Positions 9,490-57,143 of a DNA stretch of 64,000 bases are shown here, one piece after another. This DNA comes from Patescibacteria group bacterium (GTDB lineage Bacteria > Patescibacteriota > Patescibacteriia > XYB2-FULL-38-15), in the NCBI GenBank assembly GCA_041737355.1, contig JBGSRW010000007.1:10556-74555 (forward strand), given 5' to 3'. The first letter of the stretch is position 1. Each line of letters opens with the position of its first letter. The position numbers were made by a program, and so were the translations under genes. The notes below the pieces were generated by a model. It did no database searches, was not told the origin of the DNA, and saw nothing but the letters and a program-made list of their open reading frames with translations.

Positions 9490-9576
9490 TGGAAGGGTGG
9501 CTGAGTGGCCGAAAGCGCCGCACTCGAAATGCGGTATACCGGAAACGGTATCGTGGGTTCAAATCCCACCCCTTCC
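9490..9576 (+). tRNA. tRNA-Ser (anticodon CGA)
   Basis: Cloverleaf traced by hand. 7 bp acceptor stem GGAAGGG/CCCTTCC. Anticodon stem CCGCA/TGCGG with loop CUCGAAA (U33, anticodon CGA). Long variable arm ATACCG-GAAA-CGGTAT (class II). T-arm GTGGG-TTCAAAT-CCCAC. No encoded CCA. Confidence 0.88.
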
Positions 9577-9599
9577 GTTTCGACAAAAATTTTAATTTC

Positions 9600-31207: not shown

Positions 31208-31402
31208 TTATTCCAAAATTTCCTGTACCCGGCCGACTTGGCCGTCTTCCAGACGAACCTTGATCCCCCGCGGATGAGTCGGGGAATTCGTCAAAAGATC
31301 TTTCACAATTCCTTCGGTTAATTCTCCCGTCGGCTGATCTTTTTTTAAAACAACTTTCACCCGAAGTCCTGGCTTAATATCGTCTCGGTTGGTTGGGTCC
31401 AT
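31208..31402 (-). CDS. YwbE-family small protein (DUF2196)
   Basis: 64 aa; 'GIVKDLLTNSPTHPRGIKVRLEDGQVGRVQ' resembles YwbE-family proteins. Recalled from memory. Confidence 0.5.
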   Translation of the reverse strand: MDPTNRDDIKPGLRVKVVLKKDQPTGELTEGIVKDLLTNSPTHPRGIKVRLEDGQVGRVQEILE

Positions 31403-31425
31403 ATTATGTTAGGGATATTATCAAT

Positions 31426-33279
31426 TTATAAATTCCAACTCACCGGCAAAGTTCCCGTGAAAGGGAAATCGCCGAATAAAACATCCGCTACTCCGCTCCC
31501 TTCACTGCCCGGAAGCCATGCCGCGATAATTGCGTCCCAATCCTTCGCGTATTCTCCAATATCGAGCGGCCGGCCGGAAATTATAATAACAACAATTTTC
31601 TTACTGACTTTTTTTAGGTTATCAATAGTCTCAAGATCTTGGGCGGATAAACTTGGATTGGCGTTATCTCCCCACCCTTCAGCATAGGGCTTTTCCCCGA
31701 CAACCGCGATACCGAGATCAGCCAAGCCGTTCTGGCCGGGGAAATTACCATTTAAATTATATTCCACTTTAGCGCCGGGGGCCGCCGTTTCCCGTATGCC
31801 CTCCAAAATAGTTGTGCCGGGAATAAAATTACCATCAACACCCTGCCATTCTATCGTCCAGCCGCCCGCTTGCTTGCCAAGATTATCAGCCGCGGAACCG
31901 GCCACTAAAATTTTCTGGATATTTTTAGAAATTGGCAGCGCATCATTATTTTTTAATAATACCTGAGATTCGCGAACCGCTTTCCTGGCTAGCTCGCGGT
32001 GCTCGGCACTACCGATGACAGACAATCCATCTGATTCGGCTTGGGGGCGGTCAAATAATCCTGTTTTAAATTTTACTGTTAAAATCCTTTTCACGGCATC
32101 ATCCAACCGCTCTTTTGTTATGTCGCCATCCGCTATGGCTTTTTGCATATTGGACATAAAATCCTTGTATTCAAACGGAGTCATCACCATATCAATTCCC
32201 GCGTTCACCGCTCTGACCAAAGAATTATATTTGCTTGTTTCAATTTCATAAACCCCGTACCAATCGGAAACAATAAAGCCGGAAAAGCCCAGTTCGTTTT
32301 TCAGTATCTCTGTTAAAAGATGATAATTATCGGAATTTATTTTACCATTCCAACTGGCGGTACCAACCATAATAACCTGCGCTCCGCCAGCTATGGCTTT
32401 TTGAAAAGGAACCAGGTGGATTTCACGCAAAGTTTTTTCATCCAATGTTATATTCCCCTCCTCTACTTTGAATTTTTTGTTGCGGGAAGTCCCATATTCC
32501 ATAGCTCCGCCGCCTATAAAATGTTTGGGATTGGCTAATGCCATGAAATAATTATCCGAAGAATCTTGGGTCCCCTCAAGATAGGCCAGCCCCAATTCCG
32601 CTACGCTTGCGGTGTCCGATCCGAAAGTTTCATATGTTTTACCCCAACGGATATCTTTGGCAACATCAAGGTTGGGAGAAAAATTCCAATAAATTCCGGT
32701 GGCAGCCATCTCTTCGGCAGTTGCCCTTGCAACTTGTTTCACCAAATCCGGGTTTCTGGTTGCGCCTAACCCGATAAAATGAGGAAAAATCGTAGCCCCA
32801 AAAACATTGCCGTGGCCATGATTGGCATCAACCCCATACAAAAGAGGTATCCCCAAGCGAGTATCTTTGGCCGCGGACTGAAATCTATTTACCATTTTAA
32901 GCCACTCCAATGGGGTATTTTCCTTTGGCCCCGCCCCACCGCCGCTTAATAGCGCTCCTAGTCCGTATTTTGCAATATCATTAAAATCTCTGATACTGTT
33001 TTTTTCAATCAAGGCCATTTGCCCAATCTTCTCAGCGGTTGTCATTCTCTTTATCAGGTCGTCTGCCCTTGCTTCGGCTGATAATGCGGAGTTTTGATAA
33101 GGCAGATTTGTTTCGTGGCATTTAAGATCTTTTCCGTTACAAACCTTAACATATTCAATATCCGGACCCGGAGAAAAAAGGGATGGCAGGAAAAAAATAT
33201 AAACTAAAACCGCTGCAGTTAATAGAAGCGAAGCGGTTAAGAATAAAATTAATTTTTTGGAATGAAAGTTAAGATTCAC
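31426..33279 (-). CDS. glycoside hydrolase family 3 (beta-glucosidase-like), membrane-anchored
   Basis: N-terminal TM helix. 'GFSGFIVSDWYGV' GH3 nucleophile region. Two-domain length of 617 aa. Confidence 0.8.
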   Translation of the reverse strand: MNLNFHSKKLILFLTASLLLTAAVLVYIFFLPSLFSPGPDIEYVKVCNGKDLKCHETNLPYQNSALSAEARADDLIKRMTTAEKIGQMALIEKNSIRDFNDIAKYGLGALLSGGGAGPKENTPLEWLKMVNRFQSAAKDTRLGIPLLYGVDANHGHGNVFGATIFPHFIGLGATRNPDLVKQVARATAEEMAATGIYWNFSPNLDVAKDIRWGKTYETFGSDTASVAELGLAYLEGTQDSSDNYFMALANPKHFIGGGAMEYGTSRNKKFKVEEGNITLDEKTLREIHLVPFQKAIAGGAQVIMVGTASWNGKINSDNYHLLTEILKNELGFSGFIVSDWYGVYEIETSKYNSLVRAVNAGIDMVMTPFEYKDFMSNMQKAIADGDITKERLDDAVKRILTVKFKTGLFDRPQAESDGLSVIGSAEHRELARKAVRESQVLLKNNDALPISKNIQKILVAGSAADNLGKQAGGWTIEWQGVDGNFIPGTTILEGIRETAAPGAKVEYNLNGNFPGQNGLADLGIAVVGEKPYAEGWGDNANPSLSAQDLETIDNLKKVSKKIVVIIISGRPLDIGEYAKDWDAIIAAWLPGSEGSGVADVLFGDFPFTGTLPVSWNL

Positions 33280-33366
33280 AATAATTTATTACACGGGATA
33301 TTTTTTTAATTTCAGCTAACGTCAGGGATATGAGAAGTTGCGACCAACGGGAGCGATTTGGGTGAA

Positions 33367-33393
33367 GGGCAGAGGGGTTAGGGGTGAATGCCC
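33367..33393. repeat. 27 bp imperfect-dyad element, copy 1 (GGGCAGAGGGGTTAGGGGTGAATGCCC)
   Basis: Direct repeat of 34122-34148 (25/27 identical). Ends GGGCA...TGCCC are inverted. Followed by a shared CCTTATTKTATTT tail. Confidence 0.6.
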
Positions 33394-33408
33394 AAAATCT
33401 AAAACTCC

Positions 33409-34101
33409 TTATTTTATTTTAAATATGCGAAATAAATTAGTGAGTCTTCTTTCGGCGTTGGGAATATCAACGTCAAAATCCTTTACCCCTTTTTTATATA
33501 ATTCCCTGAGGTAAAGAGAGCACGAAAAAATCCAACAATAATCATAATCAAAATGTTTCTTTTCCATATTGTACCGACTGAAACTAGTAATCTTACTGCT
33601 TGGACATCTAACATCCCAAAATATTAACAATGGCTCTTGCGTATATGGGTCATCGATATCCCTATTGTTTTTTCTCATTTTAATTAGCACTTTATTCAAT
33701 CCGTTTTCGTCGCTATCGTTAAGTTCCAGAACGTCTTTTACCCAGTTTCTATTTGTCTTTTCCAAAAGATCGCGCTCGCTAATATCTACCGGCACATCTA
33801 ACCCTCCCATCGATCTGGAACACCAGCTTTTTATTTCTGTCTGAAAAAGTGTCTGCTTATCCTTAGTTTTCTCTATTATCCATCGATCCAACCGTCTACC
33901 CCTTATTGTGCCAAGTACTGGGATTTCTTTATTGGCATCAATTATTTGAACATTAGAGCCGCGCTCTTTTTCGCAGTAATGCTTGAATAGTGCTGCCCCC
34001 AGATCTTCCCCGACGACAGAAATGGCCGCGGTTGTATCTCCATAGCCAGTCGATTTTTTTATATCGAAGTATTCAAGCAATTCCTTTATATATAACTTCA
34101 T
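33409..34101 (-). CDS. hypothetical protein (possible PD-(D/E)xK-like nuclease) in AT-rich defense island
   Basis: 230 aa, about 30% GC. 'RLDRW...QTEIKSW' could be a D...ExK motif, but this is weak. No family recognised. Confidence 0.35.
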   Translation of the reverse strand: MKLYIKELLEYFDIKKSTGYGDTTAAISVVGEDLGAALFKHYCEKERGSNVQIIDANKEIPVLGTIRGRRLDRWIIEKTKDKQTLFQTEIKSWCSRSMGGLDVPVDISERDLLEKTNRNWVKDVLELNDSDENGLNKVLIKMRKNNRDIDDPYTQEPLLIFWDVRCPSSKITSFSRYNMEKKHFDYDYCWIFSCSLYLRELYKKGVKDFDVDIPNAERRLTNLFRIFKIK

Positions 34102-34121
34102 AAATTTGTTTTTTTGATTTT

Positions 34122-34148
34122 GGGCAGAGGAGTTAGGGGCGAATGCCC
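34122..34148. repeat. 27 bp imperfect-dyad element, copy 2 (GGGCAGAGGAGTTAGGGGCGAATGCCC)
   Basis: See copy 1. Lies 21 nt upstream of the start of the 33409-34101 gene on the minus strand. Confidence 0.6.
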
Positions 34149-34163
34149 TGGAGCCAAGACGCC

Positions 34164-35150
34164 TTATTGTATTTCAAATTCTTGATCAACTTCTAATAAA
34201 TGAGTTTTTAACTCGTTAATTCCAGCGTCAAGAGCGTCAATGTAAACTTCAAGTTCATAATTTTCAAAATTACCTGTATTTTTAAATGTTTCGATTTTGC
34301 TAAATACATAATCTAGTTTTTTGATTACTTCTTCTGTTCCGGGAATCCTCAAAGTTTCGCCAAATTTACCATAACGATTTTCTAAACTTTTTCTTATTTT
34401 TTTATATAATTCGTAATAATGATTAAAACTAGGCCATGCTAAATGGTCATTCCAAGAAACACCATAAATAAGATTTATCTGATACAGAGAAGGTTTGTTT
34501 AATAGATCAGATAATTTTTCATTTTTAAATATTTTTTTATGTTGTTTCTCTTCTTTTTGAATCTCTTTCATAACTATTTCTAATTCATTTCCGAGATGTT
34601 TATCTTGCTGACTAATAATATCCGAAAATTTTATCGTTTTACTTTCTGTTTTTGAATGCATCCACAGCACATATCGGAAACCGTCTTTACTCAAAGACGA
34701 ACGGTCAATAGTACAAGAGGTAATTTCATCATTTTCAAATTTTGATTTTTTGCCTTTGTTTTCTTTTTTAACAGGGTGCCCTATGGTTTCGTTTCTGACT
34801 TGTCTAATTTTAAATAGTTCAAAATATTTTTTGTCTTTCCAATCAATTTTATTACTTATACCAAATAAGGATATTTTTAAAAAGTTTACGGCGTCTTGTT
34901 GAATAAAAAGAGCTTGTAAAAGTCCGTAAGTCGCTAGATATGGATTTTTTATAAATAAATCATTTGGATCTTTTTGGAAATTTTCGATTGCTAAGCAGGT
35001 ATCCTCAAGCGTATCTAATGCCGCACAAAATTGATTCCAGTCTCCGCTCTGTTTTCTAGAATAAACTTGTGTCTTTTTTATTGTTGAATTATTAAAAAGC
35101 TCTCTAATCTGATGACTAACTTCCAAAATTTTAAATTTATTATCAACCAT
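34164..35150 (-). CDS. hypothetical protein with HEPN-like Rx5H motif (Abi-like candidate)
   Basis: 328 aa, AT-rich. 'KIRQVRNETIGHPV' fits the HEPN R-x(4-6)-H motif. Size and motif position are reminiscent of AbiD/AbiF (Abi_2) proteins. This is inference only. Confidence 0.35.
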   Translation of the reverse strand: MVDNKFKILEVSHQIRELFNNSTIKKTQVYSRKQSGDWNQFCAALDTLEDTCLAIENFQKDPNDLFIKNPYLATYGLLQALFIQQDAVNFLKISLFGISNKIDWKDKKYFELFKIRQVRNETIGHPVKKENKGKKSKFENDEITSCTIDRSSLSKDGFRYVLWMHSKTESKTIKFSDIISQQDKHLGNELEIVMKEIQKEEKQHKKIFKNEKLSDLLNKPSLYQINLIYGVSWNDHLAWPSFNHYYELYKKIRKSLENRYGKFGETLRIPGTEEVIKKLDYVFSKIETFKNTGNFENYELEVYIDALDAGINELKTHLLEVDQEFEIQ

Positions 35151-35169
35151 AGCCGAGACTCCTTAATAT

Positions 35170-36420
35170 TTATGCAGCGAGCGCAAATAATTGTTGCTGA
35201 GCACATGTAGGTGCTTCGATTTCTTCTTTAACTTCACCGTTAAGCATTTTTATTATCATATCTCCAATATAATATCCAAGATTTACAGGCACAGCATTTC
35301 CTATTTGCTTGTACTGCTGGGAAACAGAACCGGAAAATTTCCAATTATCTGGAAACGTCTGAATTCGTGCATATTCGCGTACTGTTAAAGGGCGTGTTTC
35401 TTCCGGATGACAACGTTCAGTCTGTTTTTGGGCTGGGCTGCAAGTTAAAGTTAAAGAAGGTTCATCCCATGATAATCGCCTCGCCATACCAGTTTTACCG
35501 CCACCCATAAAATAACTAGCCCCCATATATTCTTTTTGAAGATTTTCTGGGAGATCTCTCCAATATCCACCCGGAGGAATTAATTCCAATATTTTTTTCT
35601 TTTTTGGGGGGTACTCTTGACCCTCAGATTTTGGACATTTATAGAATGCTTCGCGCAAGGGGATTATGTAGTCTTTTTCTTTGGGGAATGAAATAGGGAT
35701 ATCTAGATCTTTTCTAACTCCAATAATTATTAAGCGCTCTCTTTTTTGTGGGATATCTAAATATTGAGATCGTAAAATTTTGTATTTGACTCTATATCCG
35801 AGTTCTTCCAAAACACTAACCATCGTTTTAATCGTTCTTCCGTCATCATGGTTTAATAAACCTTTAACATTTTCGCCGATCGCAATTTTTGGCTTAACTT
35901 CCTTGACGCATCTGGCAAATTCAAAAAACAAAGTCCCCCTTATATCTTCAAACCCCATTTTGTTTCCAGCACAAGAAAAAGCCTGACAAGGAAAACCGCC
36001 TTGAACTATATCAGCTTGTCCTTCAAAAAATTTAAGTTCCCTAATATCACCTTCGACCACGTTCCAGTTTGGTTTATTTGTTCGAAGTGTTTCGCAGGCA
36101 TGCTTGTCATATTCGTTTAGTAGAACATGATCAATTCCTGCATTTTCCATTCCTAAGGCAGTACCACCAGCGCCGGCAAATAGCTCAATCGCTGTATACG
36201 GAGACATTTTATGATTTTTTAAAATTTTAAATTTACTTTTTTTATCTCCGCTTGTCCTATTTTGAATCCTTTCTATTTCATCTAAGCAAAATATGCGATC
36301 ATTCCTCTCATTCCGAAAAGCTTTTATCAGTCCTTTTTTATCCCATCTTCTAATGGTATCTATGGAAGTACCTAATTTTAAAGCCACTTCTCCAGCAGTA
36401 AAAAATTTATCGTTTTTCAT
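35170..36420 (-). CDS. DNA (cytosine-5)-methyltransferase with N-terminal MerR-type HTH
   Basis: C5-MTase motifs: I 'ELFAGAGGTALGMENAG', IV 'GGFPCQAFSCAGN', VI 'ENVKGL', X 'QIGNAVPV'. The first ~60 aa form a MerR-like HTH ('FTAGEVALKLGTSIDTIRRWDKKGLI'). Confidence 0.9.
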   Translation of the reverse strand: MKNDKFFTAGEVALKLGTSIDTIRRWDKKGLIKAFRNERNDRIFCLDEIERIQNRTSGDKKSKFKILKNHKMSPYTAIELFAGAGGTALGMENAGIDHVLLNEYDKHACETLRTNKPNWNVVEGDIRELKFFEGQADIVQGGFPCQAFSCAGNKMGFEDIRGTLFFEFARCVKEVKPKIAIGENVKGLLNHDDGRTIKTMVSVLEELGYRVKYKILRSQYLDIPQKRERLIIIGVRKDLDIPISFPKEKDYIIPLREAFYKCPKSEGQEYPPKKKKILELIPPGGYWRDLPENLQKEYMGASYFMGGGKTGMARRLSWDEPSLTLTCSPAQKQTERCHPEETRPLTVREYARIQTFPDNWKFSGSVSQQYKQIGNAVPVNLGYYIGDMIIKMLNGEVKEEIEAPTCAQQQLFALAA

Positions 36421-36427
36421 AAAAAAA

Positions 36428-36448
36428 TGATAGATAACTAATCTATCA
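36428..36448. promoter_or_regulatory. palindromic candidate operator TGATAGAT-AACTA-ATCTATCA upstream of the MTase gene
   Basis: Perfect 8 bp inverted repeat, 8 bp upstream of the MTase start. Plausible binding site for the MTase's own HTH (autoregulation, as in SsoII-type systems). Confidence 0.4.
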
Positions 36449-36482
36449 TAATTCTACCATATAACCTTTGCCTAGGCAATGG

Positions 36483-37190
36483 TTATTTTGTGGAAAAAGC
36501 TAATTTAAATAGCTCAAAATACTTTCGAGCTTCCCTTTTGCTTAATTTAAACTTATATTTATCCACCAAAATATGGGACAGCGCCTCAAATAGCTCCTGC
36601 AGAGCATACTTTCGGCCAGTAGCTAGGGCATAAAAGCTTATGCCATCAATTACCCTGATATTTTTAACCCTCGGCCGTCGTTTTTTAGTCTTGTTGTCTG
36701 AGGGCGTAAAAGGTTTATCATACTTATGTTTTCCCTGTGGTATAACTTCCACATAATATCCAATAAAGTCTTTGTATTTTACATTTTTAAGTTTAGATTT
36801 TATGGCGTCATAGATTTCAACCTTATGATTGCCCTTTGTTGTATTAAATTTATTTTTTACTTCAACAATAATTTTCATATTATCACTTGCGACATCTAAC
36901 ACTCCACCCACGCCGAGGTTTTTCCAACCCGGAACAGCTCCTAAAATTTCTTGATGAAAATCACCAATAGCATTTTGCATTGTTTTTTGAGATTGCCTGG
37001 CTTTTTCTTGTTCGATCCATTCTTTATAAGTTATGGCATGTGTTACACCATGAAATAAGGCAGAAAAAGGGTCAATAACATTTTTATGCAGATTATTGCC
37101 CGCTTCATGTTCCGCTGTTTCTATTATTTTAACAACCTTTCCTACGGCGGAAATCAAGTTTTTGTCGGATATAAATTTTAGGTAGGGCAT
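36483..37190 (-). CDS. Type II restriction endonuclease (PD-(D/E)xK; Eco47II-like?)
   Basis: 235 aa immediately upstream of, and co-oriented with, the C5-MTase. 'LDVASDNMKIIVEVK' is a D-x11-E-x-K catalytic signature. The family assignment (Eco47II/Sau96I-like) is from memory only. Confidence 0.5.
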   Translation of the reverse strand: MPYLKFISDKNLISAVGKVVKIIETAEHEAGNNLHKNVIDPFSALFHGVTHAITYKEWIEQEKARQSQKTMQNAIGDFHQEILGAVPGWKNLGVGGVLDVASDNMKIIVEVKNKFNTTKGNHKVEIYDAIKSKLKNVKYKDFIGYYVEVIPQGKHKYDKPFTPSDNKTKKRRPRVKNIRVIDGISFYALATGRKYALQELFEALSHILVDKYKFKLSKREARKYFELFKLAFSTK

Positions 37191-37345
37191 AAATAATGAT
37201 TAAAGTTAATAAAATTGTTTTATACGTGCCTCTATTGTCCTTCGGCTTAACTTGAATATTGTGCTAATTTTCTGTATAATTTAAATAAGTTTATGTTATT
37301 AGAGCATAGCAACAAATACGCCCTAATGCAACGATATTTTACCTT

Positions 37346-37828
37346 ATGATAATCTTAGGAATTGACCCGGGATTTGCGAGAACCGGCTGGGGGCTGGTCG
37401 CCGAAGAAAACAAAAATCTGCGCCTGCTCGGCTACGGCTGCATTGAGACAACTGCCAAAACGCCTTTCCCGATGAGATTAAAAAAAATCTACCGGGAACT
37501 CGGCAAAATTATTACCGACTTCGGACCGACGGCCGTCGCGGTTGAAAAAATATTTTTCTGCAAGAATGTCAAAACCGCGGTTGATGTCGGCCAGGCCAGA
37601 GGCGTTATTGTGCTCGCGGCCGCGGAAAACAATCTGAAAATCCACGAATTCACTCCGCTTGAAGTCAAGCAGACAATCACCGGATTCGGAAAAGCGGACA
37701 AATCACAGATGCAAAAAATGGTAAAAATTCTCCTGAATCTTAAAGATATTCCAAAACCGGATGATGCGGCCGACGCCTTGGCTCTCGCGATTGCCGGAAT
37801 TGGGGCGCACCGCCTTTCTAAAATTTAA
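37346..37828 (+). CDS. ruvC: crossover junction endodeoxyribonuclease RuvC
   Basis: 'IILGIDPGFARTGWGLV' N-terminus and RNase H-fold catalytic residues. Confidence 0.9.
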   Translation: MIILGIDPGFARTGWGLVAEENKNLRLLGYGCIETTAKTPFPMRLKKIYRELGKIITDFGPTAVAVEKIFFCKNVKTAVDVGQARGVIVLAAAENNLKIHEFTPLEVKQTITGFGKADKSQMQKMVKILLNLKDIPKPDDAADALALAIAGIGAHRLSKI

Positions 37829-55624: not shown

Positions 55625-55766
55625 GATAAAAAATTACAAATTATTTGATAATTTTAGACTAAATACCTTTTTTTGTCAAAGGAAAAAGGGGAAATCCACA
55701 AAATATCCACAGGTGAGGAAAAATCCGAAAAAAAGACCCGCGATTTGGAGTCGCGGGGCCGGGTTT

Positions 55767-56093
55767 TTAGTCCGGATTTTCAGAGTAGGGGGTCTCGCAG
55801 TTAGGGCAATTACCCGCCCCGGGCGATGGGTCAGGGTAGCCGCAGCCGGGACAAAGCGTTGTTCCGGGAGAAACGGCGTCGAGCTCGGCCAGAGCTTCAG
55901 AAACCTCAAGGGTCAAACTGCTCTGGTGGGCCGTCCATCCATCGTAACAGACAATGCCGGTTTGTCGGTTGCGCTTGATGTGGATTGCCTGCTTGGCGCT
56001 TACGGCCAAGACGCGGCTGCCAACCGGCGTTCCCCCGCAATATACCTGCCACCTTGACCAGTTGGGATCTTCGAGCTTCCGTCTTTTGGCCAA
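55767..56093 (-). CDS. GC-rich hypothetical protein with C-terminal zinc-ribbon (CPGCG...CPNC)
   Basis: Only non-ATG (TTG) start is available, immediately after the upstream stop. About 63% GC. C4 zinc ribbon at the C-terminus. Confidence 0.3.
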   Translation of the reverse strand: MAKRRKLEDPNWSRWQVYCGGTPVGSRVLAVSAKQAIHIKRNRQTGIVCYDGWTAHQSSLTLEVSEALAELDAVSPGTTLCPGCGYPDPSPGAGNCPNCETPYSENPD

Positions 56094-56094
56094 A

Positions 56095-56364
56095 TCAGTC
56101 CGCCTTCTTTTCGGCAGGAGTTGCCTTGGTCTCGAACCACCGCTCGAGCTCCTTGAAGTAGGCCTCGGCCTTCCTGCCGATCGGCTTGTCCGGCGGCAGG
56201 TGCCTCGCTTCGCTCACCTGGCAAAGGCCATGCTCTTCGGCGATCATGCGGCCGAGAATTCCCAGCCGCGCCTTGAATTCCTTGTGGCATTCGAAGGTTT
56301 CGCCGAAAAGCTCGGCAATCACTCTCATTCGGGCGATTTTTTCGTAGAGTTTCCCTAGTTTCAT
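56095..56364 (-). CDS. GC-rich hypothetical protein (90 aa)
   Basis: ATG preceded by GGAGGAGG. Balanced composition compared with the junk-like antisense frames. Confidence 0.4.
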   Translation of the reverse strand: MKLGKLYEKIARMRVIAELFGETFECHKEFKARLGILGRMIAEEHGLCQVSEARHLPPDKPIGRKAEAYFKELERWFETKATPAEKKAD

Positions 56365-56513
56365 TTTCCTCCTCCCTCTGACGCACCCTTTTTGTGCCCA
56401 CATTTCAAGATAAGATATTTTTGTTTTTTTGTCAAGATTTAAAGAAAAAAAGAGGGGCGGACAATGCTTGGCTTGGTGCCTTACATCGCCCGCCCCGAAG
56501 GTCTGATTGGCCG

Positions 56514-56942
56514 CTAGCCGGTTTCGGCCAGACGGACCGTCGCGCGAAATGCGGCGGCGTCGAGGATGAAACCAAGCGCGCTAATCTTGCGCTCAGTTTC
56601 CCTGACATGCACGCGCTCCGTCTCGTTCCATTCCTCCTCGTCGGCCGAGAGGAGGTGGACGAGGTCCTCGGTGAGACCGCTGGTGAGCGCTTTGCGCTCG
56701 GTCTCGACCGAGACGAGATCCTCTTCGCTCATGGAGGAGCGGATCCAGGTCCGGGCCTCCTCGACCGGGTTCGTGCCGAGCATGGCCCGGACGGCGTCCT
56801 CGATCCAGGTCGGTCGCCAGTAGGCGCCGACCAGGCCGACCGCCATTGCCCGCTCGGTCGTGAAGGTCGACTTGGCCAGCTTTTCGGCCTCGGCCTTGAG
56901 CGCCTCATCACAACGGAATCCACCCAGAATCTCCTTGATCAT
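56514..56942 (-). CDS. GC-rich hypothetical protein (142 aa)
   Basis: ATG (MIKEILGG...) preceded by AGGAGGAG. About 62% GC. Confidence 0.4.
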   Translation of the reverse strand: MIKEILGGFRCDEALKAEAEKLAKSTFTTERAMAVGLVGAYWRPTWIEDAVRAMLGTNPVEEARTWIRSSMSEEDLVSVETERKALTSGLTEDLVHLLSADEEEWNETERVHVRETERKISALGFILDAAAFRATVRLAETG

Positions 56943-57143
56943 CCCTCTCCTCCTTGTTGAAATTATTATTGTTTTACCGCACAATATTCCGATTATGCAG
57001 CCTTTTAGTATATCTTAAGTCTGAGATTTTGTCAAGAGTTATTGACAGAATATAGTAAAATGACAAAAATAGCTATATATATGACGTTTTCGAATAATAA
57101 CAAAAAACGGCCCTTCCGGCCGTTTTTGATCTAGTTTTTAACC

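Follow-up and report, generated by a model that had tools for sequence, protein, structure and literature searches.

A probable defence island in a Patescibacteria group bacterium joins an Eco47II-family restriction-modification pair, two candidate protein families and hairpin elements

Described relatives and the four-gene island

The locus described here is a block of four minus-strand genes, termed R, M, C and D in their order on that strand, within a stretch of 64,000 nt (hereafter the window) from the assembly GCA_041737355.1 of a Patescibacteria group bacterium (contig JBGSRW010000007.1, positions 10,556 to 74,555). The closest described counterparts of its restriction-modification (R-M) pair are the Eco47II-family pair of the Psychrobacter plasmid pA15P1 and the SsoII and Ecl18kI systems. 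In M.SsoII and M.Ecl18kI, the N-terminal ~70 aa of the methyltransferase (MTase) bind an operator between the R and M genes, and M.SsoII is divided into domains of residues 1-71 and 72-379 (PMC3978073, PMC2760811). Genes encoding HEPN proteins are linked to R-M systems in 16 documented clades, a pattern of multi-pronged defence (Anantharaman et al. 2013, PMC3710099). Stand-alone PD-(D/E)xK defence nucleases include McrC-like, Shedu (DUF4263) and NERD proteins. The organisation of the locus is nearest to that of integrons and their attC cassettes, some of which carry defence genes (bioRxiv 10.1101/2024.07.02.601719).

Compared with these systems, the region is likely a horizontally acquired mini defence island of three separately mobile modules in one orientation: the R-M pair, gene C and gene D, together with hairpin elements. 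A reading from the letters and open reading frames (ORFs) only, here called the sequence-only reading, had taken the block for a single island with a type II R-M system. It consists instead of modules that are mobile independently of one another. The unusual part is the hairpin-bounded cassette organisation; C and D represent new families within known superfamilies and known types of context. The genes and their neighbors are located as follows.

36483-37190, minus strand: R, ORF of 235 aa
35170-36420, minus strand: M, ORF of 416 aa
34164-35150, minus strand: C, ORF of 328 aa
33409-34101, minus strand: D, ORF of 230 aa
31426-33279, minus strand: glycoside hydrolase family 3 (GH3) glycosidase, Pfam Glyco_hydro_3
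37346-37828, plus strand: ruvC, assigned from the label of the sequence-only reading and from synteny and the homologous loci retrieved with RuvC as query

The island covers ~3.9 kb, from ~33,310 to ~37,255, and has a GC content of 34.5% vs. 45.9% in the rest of the window. Sliding windows of the same size outside the island have a mean of 46.0% (standard deviation (sd) 1.9%, minimum 41.9%). The island thus lies ~6 sd below the mean and its composition is not common within the window. Among the 55 window ORFs of at least 120 aa, the four genes rank lowest in GC content (C, 28.3%; R, 35.0%; D, 37.2%; M, 37.2%), and their GC content at third codon positions is 20-38% compared to a mean of 48%. 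The AT-rich block of four co-oriented minus-strand genes that the sequence-only reading had reported is therefore real, while its figure of ~30% GC is true of gene C alone.

Related genomes were retrieved with the RuvC protein, the closest being Ca. Falkowbacteria and other Patescibacteria. On one side of the island the closest genomes keep the order rpoC-yebC (RpoC 85% identical), on the other side ruvC-GH15-glgA-GH57, and both flanks are thus syntenic. All four island genes are missing from the yebC-ruvC locus of every related genome compared. yebC directly abuts ruvC in three loci (L030, L032 and L034), the gap holds only a DUF2196 gene in L024, and other cargo occupies it in L025 and L027, including a GH3 gene in L025. 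The GH3 gene of the window is missing from L024, L027 and L032 and is also an accessory gene. Homology to the relatives picks up at ~33,305 on the left, where the match to the GH3 upstream region of L025 stops, and at ~37,255 on the right. As the yebC-ruvC gap (31208-37345 in the window) is empty or differently filled among relatives, it represents a variable hotspot and the island a lineage-specific acquisition of this Falkowbacteria-like bacterium. Horizontal acquisition, which the sequence-only reading had derived from composition and gene neighborhood and had proposed to check against genomes lacking the island, is supported on both counts.

An assembly or binning chimera in place of a real insertion is extremely unlikely. 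The window does come from a metagenome-assembled contig and its composition shifts abruptly, but host-syntenic genes lie on both sides of the block within a single contig, the arrangement of C, hairpin and D was assembled independently from another sample (L125, see below), and homologues of the R-M pair, C and D are typical of Patescibacteria contigs.

No tRNA or recombinase gene adjoins the island. A tRNA- or integrase-associated island was rejected, since the sole tRNA gene of the window is far off (9490-9578) and a query of the window for tyrosine recombinases was negative. With regard to phage origin, D homologues were not found in IMG/VR, and the C alignment is too divergent for that scan. 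Three further observations concern the remainder of the window. The tRNA gene, tRNA-Ser(CGA), falls in a low-GC bin at 9-10 kb. A segment of ~1.2 kb at 55750-56950 has 55-68% GC in a genome of 46% GC and contains only overlapping ORFs on both strands without a Pfam match; searches for Rfam families and tandem repeats were negative there. It may be a second foreign segment, from a high-GC donor. The 5' end of a 16S rRNA gene is located at the window edge (63708-64000).

The restriction-modification pair and its intergenic spacer

R matches the Pfam family RE_Eco47II (PF09553) at aa 4-208 with E=2.8e-49 (score 167.9 bits, cut-off 25.9; positions 1-197 of the 202 in the model) and the PADLOC model REase_II, for a type II restriction endonuclease (REase), with E=4.9e-53. 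The Eco47II family has been placed in the PD-(D/E)xK fold by Steczkiewicz et al. (PMC3424549), which confirms the fold assigned to the endonuclease in the sequence-only reading. A D...ExK signature was read by eye, with candidate catalytic residues in ...GVLDVASDNMKIIVEVKNK... / ...LDVASDNMKIIVEVK....

M consists of a DNA_methylase domain at aa 76-391 (Pfam, E=5.1e-84, 282.9 bits, model positions 2-324 of 324) and an N-terminal helix-turn-helix (HTH) at aa 7-53 that matches MerR (E=4.8e-9) and MerR_1 (E=2.4e-7) above the Pfam cut-offs. The C5-cytosine MTase with a MerR-like N-terminus of the sequence-only reading is thereby recovered. The motifs of C5 MTases can be read from the sequence (I, ELFAGAGG; IV, GFPCQAFS; VI, GENV; VIII, QKRER; X, GNAVP). 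M also matches TIGR00675 (dcm) in NCBIfam with E=9e-80, and its closest solved relatives are chains of M.HhaI (E=7.5e-48) and M.HaeIII (E=1.9e-39). PADLOC classifies M as MTase_II, and its model PDLC03272 spans aa 8-402, i.e. the entire fusion. Public protein clusters already bear the names 'Eco47II family restriction endonuclease' and 'DNA (cytosine-5-)-methyltransferase'. The pair, presumably of type IIP, is an ordinary, new member of a known and publicly annotated kind. The endonuclease would cut incoming unmethylated DNA, and the C5 MTase encoded downstream would protect the host.

Homologues of R were collected from 21 metagenome loci (46-91% identity). At least 17 of them have R directly followed by an M gene, with a gap of 65-80 nt compared to 62 nt in the window, while C and D were found in none of the 21. 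As the pairing of R and M is kept without C or D, the R-M pair represents a self-contained module. In one locus (L118, 40-702), an M homologue was not detected within 2.9 kb downstream of an R homologue of 75% identity. This gene may be an orphan or re-paired endonuclease.

The endonuclease of the pair on pA15P1 is 43% identical to R, and its MTase is 53% identical to M over the full length, including the N-terminal extension. Both pairs comprise two genes and no separate C protein. The plasmid genes are divergent, whereas those of the window and of at least 17 loci of the candidate phyla radiation (CPR) are arranged in tandem with a conserved promoter/operator in the spacer. The elements of the spacer are as follows.

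36421-36486, minus strand: R-M spacer with regulatory elements (sequence and promoter call)
36461-36486, minus strand: 26-bp palindrome ATAACCATTGCCTAGGCAAAGGTTAT / ATAACCnTTGCnTAnGCAAnGGTTAT, which begins in and overlaps the stop codon of R
36479-36474 and 36456-36451, minus strand: sigma-70-like M promoter from the promoter scan, with the -35 element TTGCCT, a 17-nt spacer and the extended -10 element TG-n-TAGAAT
36449-36427, minus strand: second dyad ATGATAGA-N7-TCTATCAT, with a T-run between it and the ATG of M

All of these elements are conserved in an alignment of 16 loci whose R proteins are 67-91% identical, and the conservation of the spacer is far above that of the proteins. The -10 element is TATAAT in most of the 16 loci, giving the consensus TTGCCT-N17-TA(T/G)AAT, preceded by TG. 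The palindrome overlaps the -35 element and the spacer of the M promoter. It is invariant on both sides and shows no covariation, and therefore fits a protein operator. In the second dyad, a few compensatory changes are found across loci. This dyad could terminate read-through from R, with transcripts from the M promoter starting inside its left arm and escaping termination, or it could be a second operator.

By analogy to SsoII and Ecl18kI, M is predicted to repress its own promoter via binding of the HTH to the putative 26-bp operator. M would be expressed from its near-consensus promoter in the 62-nt spacer until sufficient M has accumulated to shut it off. The proteins share the layout of an N-terminal HTH (aa 7-53 in M) and a catalytic domain (aa 76-391), and in both cases a palindromic operator, or candidate operator, is located in the intergenic promoter region of R and M. 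The systems also differ in several respects. The R and M genes of SsoII and Ecl18kI are divergent and share a regulatory region, whereas those of the window are in tandem and the candidate operator covers the M promoter only. The HTH of the window M matches MerR-type models. Further differences concern the endonuclease family and the probable recognition site: SsoII and Ecl18kI cut CCNGG, and the Eco47II family favors GGNCC.

Based on its family, R probably cuts unmethylated GGNCC-type sites. GGNCC is one of the two specificities, beside CCNGG, that the sequence-only reading had considered plausible. In the window, the observed/expected ratio (O/E) is 0.75 for GGNCC (z=-3.6) and 1.07 for CCNGG, and the island contains no GGNCC site where 3.1 are expected. 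Three points weigh against this account of specificity and regulation. GGNCC is equally depleted (O/E 0.66) in relatives without the island at the yebC-ruvC locus, so site avoidance does not discriminate specificity and was dropped as a test. Family membership cannot give the recognition sequence. No R promoter was recognised, as the promoter scan gave no convincing consensus and there is little conservation beyond ~45 nt upstream of R. The tandem R-M arrangement with its conserved operator-promoter offers a clean case for studying the timing of expression without a C protein.

The candidate effector genes C and D

Gene C has no match in Pfam, PADLOC, NCBIfam, PHROGs or the PDB, neither in single searches nor member by member over alignments. 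A word-indexed search yielded 77 homologues, nearly all from Patescibacteria, and an exhaustive profile search 2,145 clusters at 50% identity with E<=1e-3, 614 of them with E<=1e-30. The C family is large and lies outside Pfam and PADLOC. Across 51 members that are 23-59% identical to C, the residues G76, Q79, R119, G124, H125, P126 and Q182 are invariant; D46, D50, Q84, Q85 and D86 (at least 90%) as well as R116 are nearly so. The segment R119-N120-E-T-I-G-H125 represents an Rx4-6H motif with a polar residue after the arginine. In the AlphaFold2 (AF2) model of C (pLDDT 89, pTM 0.80), R119-N120 ends the helix 107-122, H125 starts the following loop and D86 is located on the preceding helix 70-96. 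Beyond the motif come a three-strand insert and a long helix.

This arrangement matches the motif layout described for HEPN domains, i.e. a site at a helix end, an acidic residue on the preceding helix and a polar residue after the arginine (PMC3710099). The features are shared with the R-M-linked HEPN genes of the AbiU2, AbiJ and PrrC/RloC paradigm, and, like these, C is located downstream of R-M operons. Members of the C family have sub-threshold matches to HEPN models of Pfam, namely HEPN_AbiU2 (two members, E=0.007), HEPN_DZIP3 and HEPN-like_int (E=7e-4). On the basis of sequence and model, C is rather likely a HEPN-type protein, and its predicted activity is probably that of a metal-independent RNase. 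The structure and profile searches weigh against this assignment: no Foldseek match of C in PDB or BFVD had an E-value below 0.1, a HEPN toxin appeared only at rank 44 (E=2.9), and profile searches against PDB sequences gave no relevant match. C thus differs from the described HEPN families in its lack of a significant profile or fold match and in its position outside Pfam and PADLOC. It further differs from R-M-linked HEPN proteins in the three-strand insert, the long helical C-terminal half and the lack of an ABC ATPase or sensor domain.

The genomic context of the C family was compared in eight distinct loci:

Window: behind the Eco47II pair
L001: behind an MvaI/BcnI gene and an N4/N6 MTase gene
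L006: behind a type III-like MTase, a helicase and a Shedu-type nuclease
L126: behind an HTH gene, an EcoRI-like MTase and GmrSD_N-HNH
L128: behind an HTH gene and an unknown 290-aa protein
L021: behind a GIY-YIG gene
L020: after an unknown 812-aa protein
L004: alone, beside a recombinase and a type I system

In five to six of the eight contexts, R-M or nuclease genes precede the C gene on its strand, and 3-19 nt separate it from these upstream operons. Typically it is the last gene of its run; exceptions are L006 and L021, where one more gene follows. The position behind R-M operons agrees with the described linkage of HEPN genes to R-M systems. By analogy, C would be a second-line defence RNase that confers abortive infection or dormancy upon restriction bypass. 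Joined to the end of the R-M operon, it would act when restriction has failed. An R-M-associated family with a HEPN-type motif is thereby outlined that no domain or defence database covers.

Gene D likewise has no family match in Pfam, PADLOC, NCBIfam, PHROGs or PDB sequences, either singly or member by member over an alignment. At least 127 homologues were found, mostly in CPR and some in DPANN archaea and Chloroflexota. In 49 sequences, G31-E32, L71-D72-R73-W74 and Q87-x-E89-x-K91 are invariant. The AF2 model (pLDDT 92, pTM 0.91) has the order alpha-beta-beta-beta-alpha-beta, with E32 on the helix 20-46, D72 at the start of the second strand (73-78) and E89-x-K91 at the end of the third strand (83-91). 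The top Foldseek matches are all PD-(D/E)xK nucleases: McrC, R2 endonuclease, AF1548, Bax1 and RecU. Judged by sequence and model, D is a predicted PD-(D/E)xK nuclease of a new family and constitutes a single-gene cassette. The weakness of the Foldseek matches weighs against this, the best being McrC at E=1.8e-3 and none reaching E<=1e-3 (probability 0.89-0.92, TM-score ~0.2-0.3).

The contexts of D homologues are varied:

L018: after the HsdR gene of a type I system with an OLD/TOPRIM gene
L015: in an island that also encodes GmrSD, a Shedu-type nuclease and a TIR protein
L009-L014: in elements with serine recombinases or PIF1/HNH genes

No cognate methylase, including an adjacent C5 MTase, was found beside the D homologues in the contexts examined; D is therefore not a classical type II endonuclease. 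The best guess is that D is a stand-alone DNA-targeting defence effector that is possibly modification-dependent. Such a nuclease would need no cognate methylase. D shares the E...D...ExK residues, the core fold and the defence-island context with stand-alone PD-(D/E)xK defence nucleases, and McrC chains are its best structural neighbors. In contrast to the McrC-like, Shedu and NERD proteins, it has no sequence-profile match and no partner NTPase such as McrB, and it is a single-domain protein of 230 aa. A further difference is a small variable ORF (130-191 aa; one with DUF6998) that often follows D homologues, located 4 nt after the gene in L009, L012 and L015, and that is missing in the window. 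It may encode a partner or immunity protein. D defines a new PD-(D/E)xK family from defence islands.

The orientation of D, its distance of 1 kb from M, its restriction-enzyme size and its PD-(D/E)xK type would also suit a second restriction endonuclease served by M. Two endonucleases with one methylase are known from Eco47I/Eco47II. This is nevertheless very unlikely for D, since an adjacent C5 MTase gene occurs in none of the examined contexts of its homologues, D is present in 0 of the 21 R-M loci, and it is a separately inserted cassette.

The absence of C and D from PADLOC weighs against a defence role of the two genes. It is conceivable, though rather improbable, that only the R-M pair serves defence and that C and D hitch-hike on mobile DNA and function in regulation, addiction or toxicity, or element maintenance and recombination, so that the modules share hotspots and not a function. 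Neither gene matches a defence model of PADLOC or PHROG, some D homologues reside in elements with serine recombinases, PIF1 helicase or HNH genes and not with clear defence genes, one C homologue is solitary beside a recombinase, and hairpin-bounded cassettes could carry any cargo. On the other hand, C repeatedly comes right after unrelated operons for R-M or nucleases, in the same orientation and at gaps of 3-19 nt, a pattern documented for the 16 R-M-linked HEPN clades (PMC3710099). Other D homologues have GmrSD, Shedu, TIR, type I R-M and OLD genes as neighbors in textbook defence islands, and the invariant residues of catalytic type are kept in both families. The proposed defence role of C and D derives from their genomic context.

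The hairpin element and the exchange of its arms

D is flanked on both sides by a 58-nt direct repeat (33367-33424 and 34122-34179, 81% identical). Each repeat contains the 27-nt core of a hairpin element, and this core occurs only twice in the window compared to 0 copies expected by chance. Scores refer to the covariance model (CM) R1.

34100-34167, minus strand: hairpin after C with the core GGGCATTCGCCCCTAACTCCTCTGCCC at 34148-34122 (68.6 bits, E=3e-14); a hybrid of a type-B 5' arm (GTCTTGGCTCCA) and a type-A 3' arm (AAAATCAAAAA)
33345-33412, minus strand: hairpin after D at the left end of the island, with the core GGGCATTCACCCCTAACCCCTCTGCCC at 33393-33367 (70.5 bits, E=1e-14); a hybrid of a type-A 5' arm (TTTTAGATTTT) and a type-B-like 3' arm (TTCACCCAAATC)
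35151-35169, minus strand: truncated hairpin remnant between M and C, ATATTAAGGAGTCTCGGCT, consisting of an AAGGAG box and the 5' arm

The intact hairpin measures ~55 nt and comprises a 17-bp stem and a 17-nt loop. The copies in L001 have folding energies of -23 and -32 kcal/mol (z=-5.6). The loop, TTCACCCCTAACCCCTC, is C-rich and nearly invariant, with 15-17 of 17 positions kept across unrelated cassettes. The stem, in contrast, covaries: in seven aligned copies, 10 of the 17 pairs are changed on both sides, a value reached by none of 500 shuffles, and slid controls are far lower. Further copies are located after the C homologue and before the upstream MTase gene in L001 and L002, so that hairpins lie on both sides of MTase-REase-C in L001. 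They are also found after M in L105 and on both sides of the R-M genes in L119, and a degenerate copy lies between HsdR and the D homologue in L018. A CM R1 scan of ~1.2 Mb (window and loci) gave no further copies except beside related cassettes. No Rfam family matches the island or the hairpin, the exact hairpin core was not found in IMG/VR, and the literature searches turned up neither a hairpin of this kind nor attC-like sites from Patescibacteria.

An identical C-hairpin-D arrangement is present at 935-1732 of L125 (Logan contig of SRR28170473, 30,367 nt). This contig ends inside the second hairpin, which is consistent with strain variation or with a repeat at the junction.

The remnant between M and C comprises the first 19 nt of the hairpin element and is one base off the intact copy after M in L105. 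It runs straight into the ATG of C, with AAGGAG 8 nt before this start codon. Its segment TAAGGAGTCTCGGCT (35165-35151) is repeated after C as TAAGGCGTCTTGGCT (34166-34152). A target-site duplication was considered for this 15-nt repeat around C and rejected, since other C loci have no flanking repeats and a truncated hairpin is the simpler explanation. From the remnant it follows that the ancestral array probably had a hairpin between R-M and C, i.e. the order [R-M]-hairpin-[C]-hairpin-[D]-hairpin, with the first hairpin truncated later.

The two window copies are hybrids in a complementary manner. The copy after C combines a 5' arm of type B, as in L105, with a 3' arm of type A, and the copy after D a 5' arm of type A, as in L001, with a B-like 3' arm. 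With RNA parameters, the two copies fold at -11.9 and -11.8 kcal/mol as they stand and at -17.0 and -17.8 kcal/mol once their arms are swapped; DNA parameters give -4.7 and -5.5 kcal/mol before the swap and -11.5 and -8.3 kcal/mol after it. In an all-against-all matrix of arms, the best partner of each arm is found on the other side of D or among arms of the same type in other loci. This exchange of arms around D is the pattern expected if the D unit recombined inside the conserved core of a resident hairpin. In such an event, a circular unit of leader, D and hairpin A (755 bp) would have recombined within the core of resident hairpin B and left the matching arms of the hairpin of D on opposite sides of the gene.

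Several candidate element types were rejected. An intrinsic terminator does not agree with the 17-nt loop and the A-rich tail without a U-tract, and the terminator scan did not call the sites. A dispersed repeat, i.e. a repetitive extragenic palindrome (REP) or a miniature inverted-repeat transposable element (MITE), does not agree with the presence of only two copies in 64 kb, both in the island. Membership in the attC/integron system was rejected because R boxes are missing, no integrase was found and the pattern of conservation is reversed. The boxes of attC are R'' (RYYYAAC) and R' (GTTRRRY). The hairpin arms are TTTTTGATTTTGGGCA / TGCCCAAAATCAAAAA and variants thereof; the sole AAC belongs to the loop (CCCTAAC), and no GTT box pairs with it.

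The likeness to integrons lies in the organisation. As with attC cassettes, the units are small, co-oriented and composed of one gene or operon, each ends in an imperfect-palindrome element, and the inserted unit has on either side one half of its own element, joined by recombination to the element of the recipient. The cargo of the window looks defence-like, as in integron-borne defence cassettes. In contrast to attC, however, the loop of the hairpin is conserved and the stem is variable, R''/R' boxes are absent, and the apparent crossover is located in the loop/core and not in a stem box. Neither intI nor another tyrosine recombinase was found in the window, and the array comprises only two to three units.

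Two explanations of the hairpin have to be weighed. According to the first, it is a terminator-like or mRNA-stabilising 3' element whose arms were exchanged by ordinary homologous recombination or gene conversion, without a dedicated mechanism; its chance is a little short of even. In every case a stop codon precedes the hairpin by 5-25 nt on the sense strand, the hairpin has no linked recombinase, and the 27-nt core is nearly identical between copies, so that RecA-mediated exchange is possible. Moreover, R-M modules in other loci end in ordinary terminators or other sequences, and L119 lacks the signature of arm exchange. A plain 3' element fits less well with the A-rich tail, the missing U-tract and the silent terminator scan. 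A terminator also needs no loop that is conserved across unrelated cassettes next to a covarying stem. In addition, the remaining 60 kb of the host window contain no hairpin of this type, its copies bracket whole cassettes in L001 and L119, and one independent contig breaks exactly inside the hairpin.

The second explanation, for which the probability is clearly lower, is that the hairpin is the recombination site of an undescribed cassette-exchange system of Patescibacteria with integron-like logic but another site and enzyme. Such a system would combine R-M systems and single-gene nucleases, among them the HEPN-like C family of more than 2,000 clusters, into small defence arrays located at 3' ends of host genes, and D would be a cassette caught just after its insertion. 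The following points weigh against a dedicated exchange of cassettes. The query for tyrosine recombinases was negative in the 64-kb window, which is not exhaustively annotated, and in the other hairpin loci. Only ~9 hairpin copies are known, all from a small number of related CPR contigs, and the hairpin is missing beside many homologues of C and D. Arm exchange does not improve the pairing in the R-M cassette of L119, and homologous recombination between the identical 27-nt cores would give the same arm pattern. A separate observation concerns L105, in which a tyrosine recombinase of XerC/D size (272 aa, 969-1787) is encoded beside ruvC, 3.2 kb upstream of the R-M cassette that ends in a hairpin; a homologue of this protein was found neither in the window nor in the other hairpin loci.

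Genomic islands with R-M systems are known in Patescibacteria (PMC12455944). CPR bacteria largely lack CRISPR-Cas (PMC4742961), and Patescibacteria are thought to rely on other defences (PMC4742961, PMC12455944). New defence candidates and a possible route of cassette exchange gain some weight from this. The acquisition and shuffling of defence genes in the very small genomes of CPR bacteria is poorly understood. The hairpin, in the form of CM R1 or of the core of the copy after D, provides a search handle for variable cassettes and candidate defence genes in CPR metagenomes. It marks the boundaries of cassettes and carries a footprint of recombination, and it would allow a test of whether a dedicated mechanism of cassette capture exists outside integrons.

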